Sequence record: NC_017969.1
Length of the DNA: 64,000 bases
Direction: 5' to 3' (one strand)
DNA from: Escherichia phage vB_EcoS_AKFV33
Each line of letters begins with the position of its first letter. The first letter of the stretch is position 1. Positions 8,450 to 52,429 of the stretch are shown piece after piece. The position numbers and the translations under genes were made by a program. The notes below the pieces were generated by a model. It searched no databases. It saw only the letters and a program-made list of their open reading frames with translations, and was not told the origin of the DNA.

Positions 8450-9088
8450 TTACTCTACTTCAATGAAGGTAGAAGCGTTAGACTCGGACAGAACAAAGTC
8501 AACATTTGTTGCAAAGTCCTGATATTCCTCGTCATGCTGCTTAATCAGCTTTTCCAGTTCCAGCGGATCAATCAAGAATGGAGTATTCTTGAGTTCCAGC
8601 AGGTTGAGCTGCATTTTAACTTCATCTTCGGAAGTTTTCTTATCGCGGGTAGCCATGCTATCCTGCAAACGCTCATATTTAGCATCAAACTGTGCTTTCT
8701 GCGTATTAAACTTAACCGTAGCGGCATGGAACTGCTTACGCATGTTAGCCAGTAGTTGGGCTTTAAGTTCCATAGAACGCTTAGCTTCAATTGCTTCCGC
8801 AACAGTCATCTTACGAGAGCCAATCTCAACGATTGTTTCCGCATTGCTTTTAATCAGAGCAGCTTTGATACGATCACGCTGGGACATCATATCCAGCAGA
8901 GACTGGAAATCAGTCTTAATACGAGTAGACAGATCAGCTACTTCGATTGCAGCGCCAACTACAACTTGGTTTTTATCCTTACCTTCACCAACAGCGATCA
9001 GAAGCTGCTGTTCAGTAGCTTTACGGATTTTAGCTTCCAGAGATTTGATAGTTGCCAGAGCGCGAGTTTTAGAAATACGAGTAGTCAT
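8450..9088 (-). CDS. hypothetical protein (212 aa), coiled-coil rich
   Basis: ORF track. Confidence 0.5.
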   Translation of the reverse strand: MTTRISKTRALATIKSLEAKIRKATEQQLLIAVGEGKDKNQVVVGAAIEVADLSTRIKTDFQSLLDMMSQRDRIKAALIKSNAETIVEIGSRKMTVAEAIEAKRSMELKAQLLANMRKQFHAATVKFNTQKAQFDAKYERLQDSMATRDKKTSEDEVKMQLNLLELKNTPFLIDPLELEKLIKQHDEEYQDFATNVDFVLSESNASTFIEVE

Positions 9089-9141
9089 TATTTGCTTCCT
9101 TATATGAAGTTTGAGATTTGAATTTGTTTAAAGTTGGTCTA

Positions 9142-12469: not shown

Positions 12470-12823
12470 TTAAATTATAATCAAGATTATGAGAGCATAG
12501 GTTAAGTAATGGAGTAACTGATCAAATCCTAAAGCTATCCAAAACTTGGAATCACTTATATCGTATTTACAGCGTTGTGCTTTCCAGTAATCTATGATAA
12601 AGTGTAGGATTAATTCCATTATAGCTAAAGTTATAGCCATTCCTAGTGATGTGAACATAGTAAGAATTATAAAGGTTAGTCCAGCATGTACTAGAGAATG
12701 GGTTAGTAATGGAAGTTTCCATCCTATTTTGTGAGTCTTCCTTAACATGTATGGAGTTTGGAGGGGATAATCAGCCATAAAATGTTTCAGGAAGAATATA
12801 ACAAATAATAATATTGTAAACAT
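12470..12823 (-). CDS. small integral membrane protein
   Basis: three to four hydrophobic helices. Confidence 0.5.
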   Translation of the reverse strand: MFTILLFVIFFLKHFMADYPLQTPYMLRKTHKIGWKLPLLTHSLVHAGLTFIILTMFTSLGMAITLAIMELILHFIIDYWKAQRCKYDISDSKFWIALGFDQLLHYLTYALIILIII

Positions 12824-45721: not shown

Positions 45722-46204
45722 ATGGCTGTAGATAGTAGAGAGAAAGGTAAACGCGGTGAATATCAGGTAAGAGATATTCTACGTGAGCGTACAGGTCTTG
45801 AGTGGGAACGTGTTCCTGGCTCTGGTGCTTTTGGCCAGAGCCATGGACTGAAGGGTGACATCTACCTTCCACCACAAAGTGGACACATTAGTAAATACTG
45901 CTTCGAAGTTAAGTGGTATAAAGATGATAATATATCAAGTAATTTATTTAATGTTGGTGAATCCACTCTAGAGAAGTGGTGGCAGCAGTGCTCACGTGAA
46001 GGTGAGCAGATGAACTCAAAACCTGCATTAATATTCAAGAAAGACAGAGGACAGTGGTTAATAGCTTTGGATAGCTCAGACCCGATGGTTGACAACTTAA
46101 TGAGTCGTACCCATATGGTGTTAAATAAGAAAGACATGGAAATCGTAATTGGTTTATTTGAGCCGTGGCTACATCATGCATCTGTTGAGGACTTAATTAA
46201 ATAA
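45722..46204 (+). CDS. putative PD-(D/E)xK-type nuclease
   Basis: GDIYL...FEVKW arrangement; position between SbcC-like and flap endonuclease. Confidence 0.5.
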   Translation: MAVDSREKGKRGEYQVRDILRERTGLEWERVPGSGAFGQSHGLKGDIYLPPQSGHISKYCFEVKWYKDDNISSNLFNVGESTLEKWWQQCSREGEQMNSKPALIFKKDRGQWLIALDSSDPMVDNLMSRTHMVLNKKDMEIVIGLFEPWLHHASVEDLIK

Positions 46205-47751: not shown

Positions 47752-47788
47752 AAAAAACCCCAGCGGATTTTGTCCGCTGGGGTTTCTT
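47752..47788. terminator. bidirectional rho-independent terminator between convergent units
   Basis: AAAAAA-CCCCAGCGG-ATTTTGT-CCGCTGGGG-TTTCTT. Confidence 0.65.
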
Positions 47789-48123: not shown

Positions 48124-49797
48124 TTACTTCTGTACCATTAGGTTGACCAGCTCTCTGAGTTCAGCTAATTCAGCTTTCACCTCAGCCAACTCCCTATCCT
48201 GCTCCTGTACTACTGCCACGATATCTGCTAGTATCGCACGATCGTTCAGGTTGAGCATTCCAGACATGCTACCGGAAAACGCGTAAATCTCATCCGCTTC
48301 TTTAGCTTCCTGAGCAATAAATCCTCGATCTTTACGCCCATCTGATAGCCATTCAAACTCACGCGCAATAAGGTGGTTAATACGGTCGCGGGGGGTGTTA
48401 CCTTCCGTATTGGTGATGTCTGTGATCTTGTCTTTTAGGCGACGATCTGAACCGCCAGGTTGGATAAGGCCTAAATTAGTGTCGATACATGAATTTTCCC
48501 ATTTAAACGCCCAATATTTATTACCGCCTACGGCTCTAGTAATATTTAGTTGTACGGCTCTAAATTGTGTACTACCTTCACGTATGCCACCAAATTCCCA
48601 TCTATCATCATACCAATGACCACGAATAATATTTACGTAGGTATTACCTTCGCTACTAGGAGTAACATTGAAAAACTCGATGGCGTTGGGCTCTCCAGTA
48701 TTACCTACATAGAAACCACCTAGCCCTGGAACCGTTACCGCACCACCTGAGCTAACAGACATTACCTCCCTAGACGTACCTTCTTGTCCTTTCACTTCAA
48801 GCGCAGAATAAAAATCTGTCCCAAAACGGATCTTGGTACGCAATTGTGAGACGTATGCTTCCGCACCTGCAATATTGTACACAGATCGCACAGCGCCGCC
48901 ATATGCCGTTACGCCGCTTGCGGGTTCGGTTGCATCGCCATTAATGACACTCCATGATGTATTTGCTGCAATAAATCCACCGGACGCACGGATTACCCAC
49001 ACACCGACAAAGTTGCGCGTAAGGATTTCATCAGTGGATGCGCCATAAATCGGACTTGAAATTGAAGCATTGAAGTCACAGGTGTTATAACGTCCAGAAA
49101 GAGCTGTACTTCCTGGTGGGATTCCGTCACCTCTTCCGTCAGGGAAAGCATTATTGCTTGCATTAAAACAACCACCTGTTTGACCTAATACTTGGCCGTA
49201 GGTTTGAGAGGCATAAGTGGTGAAAAAACCTGTAATATTAGGCGCAGCGGATTCGAACAGTTGCCCATTTGCACCACTATTCCCACCATCTCCACGGCCA
49301 TAAAGAGCACGTATTGATCCCTCCTGCACCCCATTCTTATCTGGAACACGAAAGGTTGTTGTCCCATCCCCAGATGAGTACTTACCACGCTGAAATTTAT
49401 CCGCTAACCATACGGAATCCTCTATAACACCAACCATTTGAGCGTATGCCCAAAGCTCCGGCCAGTCAGCCCTGTTAAGAAGCTGCCCATCAGAAACTAC
49501 TTCATAAGGTTGAATATACGCACGGCTATCGCGAAGGTGGAAATCACCAACACCGTAATTCATAACACCATTCATAGTGGGACCGACTGTACCGGTGTTA
49601 ATCTTATTCTCTACCCAACGTTTAGTTGCGGCATCATAGTCCCCAACAGGATCTCCCGCAAGAGGGGTGGACCCAATAGGACGCACATTTAACCATGCTG
49701 CTGCACGGTCTGCAAGATCGGATAAATTGTTGTTTTTATCCATCTTTTCGTCTTTAAGTTTTGTAATATCCTGGGGGATATTAGTATAAGTAGTCAT
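48124..49797 (-). CDS. L-shaped tail fibre protein B-like, C-terminal intramolecular chaperone (S74-type)
   Basis: C-terminal ...RINHLIAREFEWLSDGRKDRGFIAQEAKE... then coiled-coil tail; GAGGTG RBS. Confidence 0.65.
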   Translation of the reverse strand: MTTYTNIPQDITKLKDEKMDKNNNLSDLADRAAAWLNVRPIGSTPLAGDPVGDYDAATKRWVENKINTGTVGPTMNGVMNYGVGDFHLRDSRAYIQPYEVVSDGQLLNRADWPELWAYAQMVGVIEDSVWLADKFQRGKYSSGDGTTTFRVPDKNGVQEGSIRALYGRGDGGNSGANGQLFESAAPNITGFFTTYASQTYGQVLGQTGGCFNASNNAFPDGRGDGIPPGSTALSGRYNTCDFNASISSPIYGASTDEILTRNFVGVWVIRASGGFIAANTSWSVINGDATEPASGVTAYGGAVRSVYNIAGAEAYVSQLRTKIRFGTDFYSALEVKGQEGTSREVMSVSSGGAVTVPGLGGFYVGNTGEPNAIEFFNVTPSSEGNTYVNIIRGHWYDDRWEFGGIREGSTQFRAVQLNITRAVGGNKYWAFKWENSCIDTNLGLIQPGGSDRRLKDKITDITNTEGNTPRDRINHLIAREFEWLSDGRKDRGFIAQEAKEADEIYAFSGSMSGMLNLNDRAILADIVAVVQEQDRELAEVKAELAELRELVNLMVQK

Positions 49798-49807
49798 TAA
49801 TCACCTC

Positions 49808-50074
49808 TTATGCCCATTTGCGTACACCGGGATTCTCAATAATGAATTGTTCGATGTCTGACAAGTCTATATTATCTCCTACTATCCTTATATTTATGTA
49901 ATAACCTTCTTTACCAATAATAGCAGGGGTTTTACTTTTAGGGTCGTCTACCATGGGGATAAAACCAATTTCATCTATAAACACGTTACCGTAGTTTGTC
50001 TTAAGCCACCCACTATCAACGACAACATCCCGATAATGTTTTTCATCCTTGAATTGTAAATTAATATCTTTCAC
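49808..50074 (-). CDS. 88-codon ORF contiguous and in frame with upstream fibre gene
   Basis: GTG start is the codon immediately after the TAA of 50075-52429. Confidence 0.4.
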   Translation of the reverse strand: MKDINLQFKDEKHYRDVVVDSGWLKTNYGNVFIDEIGFIPMVDDPKSKTPAIIGKEGYYINIRIVGDNIDLSDIEQFIIENPGVRKWA

Positions 50075-52429
50075 TTAAACTTTCTCCCGCATTTGACTAT
50101 CTGTTAATACTCTATTCCATATTCTAAGGTTACGAATATGACCATACAATTTAGTTGAATCTGAAGGTCTACCGCCTATTTCTACTAACGAGTCCGAGTC
50201 CGTTCCTTTCCAGGTAGAACCGTGTGAGGTACCACCCTTATTCCCATTAACAAACGAGGTGACATCTCCATTACCACTAAAAATAAAACCAAATACATGA
50301 GGAGAAAATTGTTTTTCAAATGCATAACCTCTGGATAATATAGTTGATCCACCCTCATTTACCACATACGCGTAAGGTGTAGCGGAGGTACTGTCAAATT
50401 CCGCAACAAATGCTTTTCCTTCTACGTAGTATGGCTTATTATCAATTATCATTGGGTATGTATTATTTAGTTGAAAGCTATCCCAGTTAATACTTACCTC
50501 AGCAAGTAATGAAATATTAGTTCCTGAGAAATTATTTCTTGCAGGTATAGTAATATAATCTACAGCCCTTGTTGCAGGTGTACTCCCCGTAATAATGAAG
50601 GAGGATGCACAAAACCCTTTTTCAAATTGCGGGGTACAAAATGATATTGTATCTCCAACCTGTACAGGTTGATCATTCTCCCTACAATAATTTACAGATC
50701 CAATAGAGTTACCACCACGTTCTACAAATTTACATGTAGCTTCAACTTTCAACCATCCGTTGTCTTCTCTATATATTCTATGTGTTATAGTACCTCTCCC
50801 TTCTACTACAGAAGAAACTTCACCGGTTTCGCAACTTATGAAAGATCTAGCGCCGAGAATAAGACCTCCGTCCTCACCTACTAAATAAAATTGCGGTGTG
50901 ATATAGATACCCAAGTTTGCTTTTACTCGTATAGATAAAGAAACGTATTCATTTTGCTGACAGTTGATTGCATTTACTGTTTCACAATAAAATAATGAAG
51001 GATACTCACCTTGTGCTTTTTCGTTTACTGTCGCCGTTGCATATGCAAAACCATACTTATCAATATTATAAGTAACATCACTACGGTATTTATCCGTATT
51101 TAATGAAGCGGGGTCATTACTATAAGTGATATAGTTTGTCCGCTGGCCTTCAATTAAGAGTCCTTGCTTTTCAAATCTAGGCTCATCGATATTGGCAATA
51201 CAAAACTCACCGTGTTTGTTTATATATGTTGCATTTGATGCGCGGGAGAAACTGACAACCTTATCCGAGGGCATTGTAATAACATCTTCACCAACTGTTA
51301 TTTTCTTGTATCCTGGCGAGTAACCTGCAAGCATATCAAGCGAGTCATTAAAGGGAATCCATACGTCAGGGAATGGTTGAAGATCCGGACCCCTGTTAGC
51401 TGCAACTTCCGCACGGTCTGCTTCTGCTTTTGCACGGTCTGCTTCTGCCTTAGAGCTGTTTGCACTACCAGCAGCATTGCTAGCTTGTTGCCCGGCCTCA
51501 ATAGCACTATTACCAGCTTGTGTAGCAGAAGCAGCAGCTTGGTTTTTTAAAGCTGTTGTATCAGATACCGCGCTATCCTTAATACCTTGTGTATCCGTTT
51601 TTAATTGCTCAACATCTGCTTTTAAAGTTGTTATCTCGGATACCGCGCTATTTTTAATGGCCTGGGTATCAGATTTTAACTGTTCTACATCCGCTTTTAA
51701 AGCTGTTGTCTCTGTTACAGCACTATTTTTAATGGCCTGGGTATCAGATTTTAACTGTTCGACATCTGATTTAAGTCCTTGAATAGCAGCTACAGATTGG
51801 CTGGCAGAAGTTGCAGATCCAGCAGCATTAGTTTCACTAGTCTTCGCATTAGTTTCGCTAGTCTTCGAGTTGGTTTCAGAGATTTTTGCCGCAGATGCCG
51901 ATGCAGCAGCTTGCCCAGAAAATATTTCCGCCTCATTCCTAAAACCGCTAGAATCAGCCGCTGATTGAGCTGCATTAGTCTCACTTGCCTTTGCATTAGT
52001 CTCACTAATTTTTGCAGCAGCAGCTGATGCGTCTTCACTAGTCTTCGCATTAGTTTCGCTAGTCTTCGAGTTGGTTTCAGAGGTTTTTGCAGCTGCAGCT
52101 GATTCTGCAGATTTAGTAGCAGAAGCGGCAGACTGAGTAGCAGAAGTAGCTGATTGAGTAGCAGAAGCTTCTGAAGCTCCAGCGGAAATAGCAGCATCAT
52201 TTTCAGATTCTTTAGCATTAAGTTCTGAGGTTTTAGCAGCTATTTCAGAATCTTTTGCAGCCGCAGCAGATTTAGCGGCGGCCTCTATAGAAGATACTAA
52301 CTCATTAGCAGTAATAGAGCTAATAGAATTTCCAAGAGTTACTGTGTATCTAGGAAATTTACTAGCAGTAGCTTTAGTATCATCAATATTTAATATTTGT
52401 TGTACAATAATCTTAGTAGTTATTGCCAT
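50075..52429 (-). CDS. L-shaped tail fibre protein A-like (Ala/Ser-rich repeats)
   Basis: N-terminal SETN/AKTS repeats and three 25-aa repeats; no C-terminal chaperone domain. Confidence 0.65.
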   Translation of the reverse strand: MAITTKIIVQQILNIDDTKATASKFPRYTVTLGNSISSITANELVSSIEAAAKSAAAAKDSEIAAKTSELNAKESENDAAISAGASEASATQSATSATQSAASATKSAESAAAAKTSETNSKTSETNAKTSEDASAAAAKISETNAKASETNAAQSAADSSGFRNEAEIFSGQAAASASAAKISETNSKTSETNAKTSETNAAGSATSASQSVAAIQGLKSDVEQLKSDTQAIKNSAVTETTALKADVEQLKSDTQAIKNSAVSEITTLKADVEQLKTDTQGIKDSAVSDTTALKNQAAASATQAGNSAIEAGQQASNAAGSANSSKAEADRAKAEADRAEVAANRGPDLQPFPDVWIPFNDSLDMLAGYSPGYKKITVGEDVITMPSDKVVSFSRASNATYINKHGEFCIANIDEPRFEKQGLLIEGQRTNYITYSNDPASLNTDKYRSDVTYNIDKYGFAYATATVNEKAQGEYPSLFYCETVNAINCQQNEYVSLSIRVKANLGIYITPQFYLVGEDGGLILGARSFISCETGEVSSVVEGRGTITHRIYREDNGWLKVEATCKFVERGGNSIGSVNYCRENDQPVQVGDTISFCTPQFEKGFCASSFIITGSTPATRAVDYITIPARNNFSGTNISLLAEVSINWDSFQLNNTYPMIIDNKPYYVEGKAFVAEFDSTSATPYAYVVNEGGSTILSRGYAFEKQFSPHVFGFIFSGNGDVTSFVNGNKGGTSHGSTWKGTDSDSLVEIGGRPSDSTKLYGHIRNLRIWNRVLTDSQMREKV
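51545..51775 (-). repeat. intragenic tandem repeat, three copies of ~75 nt
   Basis: near-identical 75-nt units encoding 25-aa repeats within fibre gene. Confidence 0.7.
51835..52083 (-). repeat. intragenic dispersed direct repeat (~48 nt, two copies ~200 nt apart)
   Basis: CACTAGTCTTCGCATTAGTTTCGCTAGTCTTCGAGTTGGTTTCAGAG at 51835 and 52036. Confidence 0.65.

Follow-up and report, generated by a model that had tools for sequence, protein, structure and literature searches.

The lateral-fibre locus and the ltfA junction

We analysed a 64,000-nucleotide (nt) stretch of Escherichia phage vB_EcoS_AKFV33 (NC_017969.1), hereafter the window, in which the fibre gene ltfA is followed on the minus strand by an 88-codon open reading frame (ORF), the small gene studied here. 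Megablast comparison identified the region as the lateral-tail-fibre locus of a T5-like phage (Tequintavirus), the best matches being ~91% identical (phiAPCEc03, NBEco002 and ESCO40). The genes ltfC, ltfA, the small gene and ltfB form the lateral-tail-fibre operon of this T5-like phage (Table 1). The start of ltfA is overlapped by ltfC by 1 nt, and the small ORF and ltfB are mutually out of frame across a 10-nt spacer.

Table 1. Features of the lateral-fibre locus in window coordinates (nt, nucleotides; aa, amino acids; SD, Shine-Dalgarno sequence)
Feature	Description	Position	Strand	Basis
ltfC	Collar protein for lateral-fibre attachment, 140 aa	52429..52851	-	Pfam LtfC, E 3.9e-14; same annotation in relatives
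ltfA	Proximal lateral tail fibre protein, 784 aa, ATG start	50075..52429	-	ORF list, profile matches
SD-like GGGAG	For the small gene, 9 nt upstream of its GTG, in the last ltfA codons	50084..50088	-	
ltfA stop codon	TAA, tetranucleotide context UAAG	50075..50077	-	
Small-gene initiation codon	GTG; aligns with the ATG of SelmaRatti, SP15, BRET, IrisVonRoten and others	50072..50074	-	
Small gene	88 aa, GTG start, PHROG 1361 member	49808..50074	-	ORF list, PHROG profile
SD GAGGTG	Serves ltfB; within the 10 nt that separate the small-gene stop from the ltfB ATG	49802..49807	-	
ltfB	Second fibre protein, 557 aa	48124..49797	-	Pfam/PHROG, alignment of relatives
Terminator-like hairpin	Strong, bidirectional, intrinsic-terminator-like; closes the fibre operon	47752..47788	.	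Terminator scan

The junction on the minus strand reads ...ATG CGG GAG AAA GTT TAA GTG AAA GAT ATT AAT... No nucleotide separates TAA from GTG, both ORFs lie in one frame (the translation of 49808-52429 contains a single internal stop), and the small ORF terminates at the TAA at 49810-49808 on the minus strand. The sequence, the ORF list and the translation therefore all confirm the geometry described in the original prediction, in which a TAA is followed at once by a GTG that opens an 88-codon ORF in the same frame. The accompanying statement that the small ORF lacks a ribosome binding site did not hold. The GGGAG motif at 50088-50084 lies within the final codons of the upstream gene, which is the usual position for abutting genes, and an equivalent motif is present in every homologous locus. 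The 45-nt junction sequence is identical, or nearly so, in five independently sequenced phages (APCEc03, NBEco002, ESCO40, I14 and FFH_1), and is thus not a sequencing artefact.

One in three same-strand junctions is expected to be in frame by chance. Three further pairs, in which an ORF shares the frame of the long ORF before it with 0-3 nt from stop to start, occur within the 64-kb window (8756-9121 and 45722-46204 on the plus strand, 12470-12823 on the minus strand). Given these pairs and the chance expectation, the in-frame abutment is statistically unremarkable, and such junctions are common in the AKFV33 genome. Compared with shuffled controls, the junction RNA (120 nt) shows no excess of structure (z = +0.67), and both the Shine-Dalgarno (SD) sequence and the start codon of the small gene are unpaired in its minimum free energy structure. 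A terminator-like site is absent from the ltfA/small-gene junction, and the promoter-like matches there are weak only (9 of 12). A strong terminator is found only after ltfB, as expected of a co-transcribed, coupled gene pair; in T5, too, a bidirectional terminator is annotated at the corresponding position.

T5-like lateral-fibre sequence was also found in three records with other taxonomic labels. These are the 97-kb record of phage vB_EcoS_I14 (L020, PP892525.1), classed as Felixounavirus, and the short records H65 and H86 ('Listeria phage LM 4-11-1' and 'LM 4-14-1'). Their fibre sequences are nearly identical to, or homologous with, that of the window, and the records are likely to be misclassified or mixed assemblies.

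A conserved small gene at a variable junction

The 88-codon ORF is a real, conserved and separate protein-coding gene. Its product matches PHROG 1361, a family with no assigned function, over the whole length (E = 3e-29; residues 1-88 against profile positions 1-92 of 92), and is an acidic protein of 88 amino acids (aa) and ~10 kDa with an isoelectric point of 4.8. Homologues were detected by tblastn in 68 phage records, and a profile search yielded 116 homologue clusters, nearly all of 88-99 aa and all named 'hypothetical'. Full-length homologues with 25-40% identity are present in at least six phage or prophage lineages. The conserved residues comprise M1-K/R2-D3, a GYYVNIR motif and a C-terminal R-x-W-A that extends to W87/A88. 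The AlphaFold model is compact, alpha+beta and ferredoxin-like (predicted local distance difference test score, pLDDT, 89.7), and its first strand spans residues 2-8. Because both conservation and the first strand begin at residue 1-2, the domain starts at the proposed start codon.

No sequence or fold link to a characterised family was found for the small protein. Fifteen family members gave no match in Pfam at E values up to 10, Caudo_TAP (PF02413) included, and none in NCBIfam. A phmmer search with the 88-aa protein against 1.84 billion representatives returned only eight hits; the hits P0014 and P0017 are repetitive proteins and were discarded as spurious. Sequence-profile matches in the PDB to 'Pizza' designer proteins were considered artefacts, and no significant domain was obtained. 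In the literature we found no study of the small gene and no virion proteomics covering its product.

We surveyed the junction in 28 loci, window included. The arrangement of a 0-nt gap, a GTG and a shared frame is confined to the window, APCEc03, NBEco002, ESCO40, I14 and FFH_1, which share at least 93% identity in their small proteins and have identical or nearly identical junctions. A gap of +1 nt is present in SelmaRatti, SP15, WP85, PH204, SA126VB and phiG7 (TTTAA-A-ATG) and in Lindwurm (TTTAA-A-GTG), and one of +2 nt in BRET (TTTAA-AA-ATG). The two genes overlap by 1 nt (TAATG, gap -1) in PhiR55_1, AZ21, ityhuna, APCEc02 and L025, and by 4 nt (ATGA, gap -4) in IrisVonRoten, VogelGryff, SIA3lw, YJin-2024a, L026, L027, L028 and L032. 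The gap thus lies between -4 and +2 in 27 of the 28 loci; the other is the E. coli prophage locus L030, where a spacer of +10 nt comes with the canonical strong SD AAGGTGGTG. As the gap takes the values 0, +1, +2, +10, -1 and -4, the reading-frame relation of fibre gene and small gene is not conserved. The start codon and SD are conserved: every one of the 28 loci has a GTG or ATG at the homologous codon, with an SD-like purine-rich motif 4-10 nt upstream. The C-terminal residue of the upstream protein is homologous across all lineages (...GHIRNLRIW..L.D.Q...V*). In addition, the small gene is annotated in GenBank as a separate coding sequence in every relative inspected, in Lindwurm with an annotated ribosome binding site. 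Orthologues that stand as independent genes, with a ribosome binding site and a spacer of their own, are found in L030 and, with out-of-frame spacers and ATG codons, in SelmaRatti, SP15 and BRET; finding such orthologues is what the original prediction had named as telling against its own proposal.

Fusions of the small protein to a fibre are absent from the 116 homologue clusters. In homologues of 194 aa, the partner of the small protein is not the fibre but a membrane protein encoded by a downstream ORF. In E. coli prophages (L026 559-1143, GCA_018430405.1) the small gene is in frame with this next ORF, a predicted membrane protein of 97 aa, and the two are separated by a TGA and four codons that contain an SD (TGA AAG GAG GAA ATA ATG). 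In the metagenome-derived proteins P0052, P0053 and P0062 the separator stop is replaced by W, C or R, which gives the 194-aa fusions.

Expression of the small gene and rival readings

We propose, with a probability of about 0.88, that the small ORF is an independent gene with its own GUG and SD, translationally coupled to ltfA and expressed with no recoding, and we infer that its product is a partner of the LamG-type fibre tip. Ribosomes translating ltfA would terminate at the UAA, and the small gene would be initiated at the adjacent GUG with the help of the GGGAG 9 nt upstream. This initiation may involve a newly bound 30S subunit, or the ribosome that has just terminated may reinitiate. 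Termination-reinitiation, one of the mechanisms named in the original prediction, is compatible with the data and, as ordinary translational coupling, the likely means of expression: stop and start lie next to each other and the SD is inside the upstream ORF, as in coupled pairs. The 0-nt in-frame state is recently derived in one near-identical clade, through a change of ATG to GTG, as in Lindwurm, and then loss of one A to give TTTAA-GTG. The TTTAA-A-ATG, TTTAA-A-GTG and TTTAA-AA-ATG junctions of the relatives account for this route. That the two genes share a frame is a matter of chance, confined to one phage subgroup. Gene pairs with the same junction are already annotated as two genes in published genomes, and the observation is real but ordinary. 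It shows that a chance in-frame abutment of stop and start in a compact phage operon can mimic recoding.

Alternatively, some ribosomes might decode the TAA in a programmed manner and produce an LtfA-p88 fusion of 873 aa that is built into the fibre. What speaks for such readthrough is the geometry only, that is, the 0-nt spacer and common frame in the window and the five near-identical phages. In 22 of the 28 homologous loci this frame is not conserved, whereas the small ORF's own SD and start codon are, and no fused homologue exists in the 116 clusters. UAA is the least leaky stop codon in E. coli, and UAA followed by G belongs to the tightest class of terminators; readthrough commonly takes place at UGA or UAG when the base on the 3' side is permissive. 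The window has a UAA followed by G and no flanking RNA structure. Programmed readthrough, which the original prediction had raised, is accordingly very improbable. A weaker form, in which low-level UAA readthrough in the 0-nt clade yields a minor extended LtfA that is incorporated and alters fibre function, seems just as far-fetched. If true, it would amount to a newly arisen arrangement like that of Q-beta A1 in the fibre of double-stranded DNA phages (window, FFH_1, APCEc03, NBEco002, ESCO40 and I14).

A recent nonsense mutation had also been proposed. In this reading, or in that of a split fibre gene, LtfA, the small ORF and LtfB would be fragments of one ancestral, T5-like fibre of ~1400 aa. 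The predicted total of ~1430 aa is correct in that 784, 88 and 557 sum to 1429 aa, close to the 1396 aa of T5 Ltf, and the LtfA N terminus and LtfB both have counterparts within one DT57C LtfA chain (8hqz_d 1-208 and 528-1006, respectively). The likeness to the T5 fibre itself is coincidental. Residues 1-218 of T5 Ltf align only with LtfA 1-216 (51% identity), the alignment fails beyond this region, and T5 Ltf matches neither the small ORF nor LtfB. The agreement in length is meaningless, and the small ORF and ltfB are in different frames anyway. In every relative the upstream gene stops at the homologous position, where a complete LamG domain ends, and thus a nonsense mutation is not supported; nor does it agree with a small-protein fold that begins at residue 1-2. 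The three-gene layout recurs in many independent isolates of several phage families, and no relative was seen in which a sense codon replaces the TAA and one continuous collinear ORF results. We regard this splitting of an ancestral gene as still less credible than readthrough. That the 88-codon ORF is a chance open frame that is not expressed can be put forward on account of its small size and GTG start, and nothing else. The full-length homologues in at least six lineages, with conserved termini and motifs, and the confident fold prediction contradict it; this reading is effectively refuted by conservation and is the most implausible of all those considered here.

Linkage to the LamG fibre tip and comparison with known systems

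LtfA is composed of an N-terminal attachment region of the T5/DT57C type, a coiled-coil shaft and C-terminal beta domains. Its residues 1-212 match residues 1-208 of the DT57C LtfA chain 8hqz_d (E = 1.1e-34). NCBIfam places a GTA head-spike-fibre domain at aa 425-622, and Pfam a Laminin_G_3/LamG jelly-roll at aa 624-779 of 784, with the match reaching position 149 of 151 of the model. No Peptidase_S74 chaperone domain was matched in LtfA by Pfam. For the C-terminal 360 residues AlphaFold predicts an all-beta structure (pLDDT 82.5). Among solved structures it most closely resembles LamG, pentraxin and toxin-Hc jelly-rolls and the RcGTA head spike fibre Rcc01080, and the baseplate proteins gp45/gp46 of E217/Pa193 are distant structural relatives.

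The N-terminal part of LtfB includes a conserved IPxDITxLK region, and its C-terminal part is an intramolecular chaperone of the Peptidase_S74 type. LtfB residues 16-498 match residues 528-1006 of 8hqz_d, the distal half of DT57C LtfA (E = 1e-128), so that the window LtfB (48124-49797, minus strand) resembles the distal part of DT57C LtfA and not a separate LtfB-type chain. This homology is an example of mosaic reshuffling, in which modules have moved between first and second fibre genes. In phage ityhuna (L022 4114-4787) the LtfB-like gene is annotated as two overlapping ORFs, one with the IPGDITKLK part and one with the S74-like part, pointing to a frameshift or to an error in the sequencing of this record.

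In all 28 loci the gene directly 5' of the small gene encodes a protein of the fibre or baseplate whose LamG-type C terminus is homologous. The pair is hosted by Tequintavirus, Seuratvirus, Nonagvirus, Warwickvirus ityhuna, Vequintavirus APCEc02, lambdoid phages and prophages, and myovirus-type prophages, lineages described as T5-like, 9g-like, T1-like, rV5-like, lambdoid and myovirus-type. In the last of these the LamG protein and LtfA share only 25-27% identity. Several lineages have an LtfB-like gene downstream of the pair; L023, L025, L026, L028 and L030 have none. Between IrisVonRoten and the window the small protein is 36% identical, the last 160 aa of LtfA 27% and the first 70 aa of LtfB 89%. 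In the per-locus identity table, the divergence of the small protein tracks the LtfA C terminus and not the LtfB N terminus; this table alone is informative, as Spearman correlations of segment identities over all pairs failed to tell the partners apart. The small protein and the LamG-type distal end of the upstream fibre are passed on together as a single module.

On the myovirus-type prophage contig L032 (2501-5993), the LamG protein and small gene occupy the baseplate-wedge position. Behind them come a Gp53-like fibre and two Caudo_TAP genes of the classical kind, whose chaperones are for a different fibre, so that one element contains both the small protein and Tfa-type chaperones.

The constant LamG neighbour, the co-divergence with the LtfA C terminus, the lack of S74 in LtfA and the Tfa-like gene position lead us to suggest that the small protein is probably a dedicated assembly or folding factor, or a bound accessory subunit, of the LamG fibre tip. 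The main functional rival is that it serves as a structural adaptor joining LtfB to the LamG end of LtfA in a branched fibre. The small gene does stand between the LamG fibre and an IPxDITxLK/S74 protein in Tequintavirus, Seuratvirus/Nonagvirus, Warwickvirus and one lambdoid phage. Genetics of DT57C shows that LtfB attaches through LtfA (PMC4728585, PMC10713586), and gp45 of E217, a distantly similar LamG-type baseplate protein, is a docking platform for a fibre N terminus (PMC10329688). However, gp45 is a distant LamG-fold relative only and is not followed by a small gene in E217, and DT57C attaches its LtfB without such a gene. The five loci that lack a downstream LtfB-like gene retain the pair of LamG protein and small gene. 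Divergence of the small protein goes along with that of the LtfA C terminus, while the LtfB N terminus keeps 87-89% identity. An adaptor role is therefore possible, although we consider it the less likely of the two.

Beyond the junction, the modest interest of the locus lies in PHROG 1361 as an uncharacterised family of small proteins tightly linked to LamG-type receptor-binding modules. If the small protein is an assembly factor or tip subunit, its gene should accompany LamG receptor-binding modules that are swapped for phage re-targeting. It would also represent a fibre helper with a fold unrelated to those of Tfa, gp38 or S74 chaperones.

Among known systems, the ltfA/small-gene pair resembles the coupled gene pairs of phage late operons (ATGA/TAATG type), in which the distance between stop and start is 0-4 nt, the upstream coding sequence contains the SD and both genes belong to one transcription unit. 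The same fibre/small gene pair shows ATGA, TAATG, +1 and +2 junctions in relatives. Unlike in typical coupled pairs, the ltfA and small-gene codons abut exactly, the start is GTG and the frames happen to coincide. The coat/A1 readthrough of Q-beta shares with the window two ORFs in one frame with a single stop codon between them. There, the extension lacks both a separate start codon and a separate SD, and the stop is a leaky UGA, whereas the window has a UAA-G stop, independent initiation signals downstream and a frame that is not conserved.

The single-gene, L-shaped fibre of T5 (Ltf/pb1) differs in that collinear homology with LtfA, the small ORF and LtfB fails. The phages DT57C and DT571/2 have two-gene branched lateral tail fibres encoded by ltfA and ltfB (Golomidova 2016, PMC4728585; Ayala 2023, PMC10713586). 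The window shares with DT57C the LtfC collar, the homologous LtfA N terminus and a downstream second fibre protein that ends in S74. An intramolecular S74 chaperone is present in T5 Ltf and in both LtfA and LtfB of DT57C (PMC4728585). DT57C LtfA thus has an S74 chaperone of its own, and no small gene lies between DT57C ltfA and ltfB. In contrast, the window LtfA ends in the head-spike-fibre and LamG domains without S74 and is followed by the 88-aa gene; S74 is found in the window LtfB only, and this LtfB corresponds to distal DT57C LtfA.

A functional parallel may exist with Tfa-type assembly proteins (Tfa of lambda, Mu and P2, Caudo_TAP; gp38 and gp57A of T4). Like the small gene, their genes are situated immediately downstream of a fibre gene and tightly coupled to it. 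Both co-vary with the distal receptor-binding end of the fibre, and in both cases the fibre is without an intramolecular chaperone. The small protein differs from Tfa in sequence and fold, with no similarity in either, and is half its size; by analogy with these systems, it may act as a chaperone of the LamG fibre tip.

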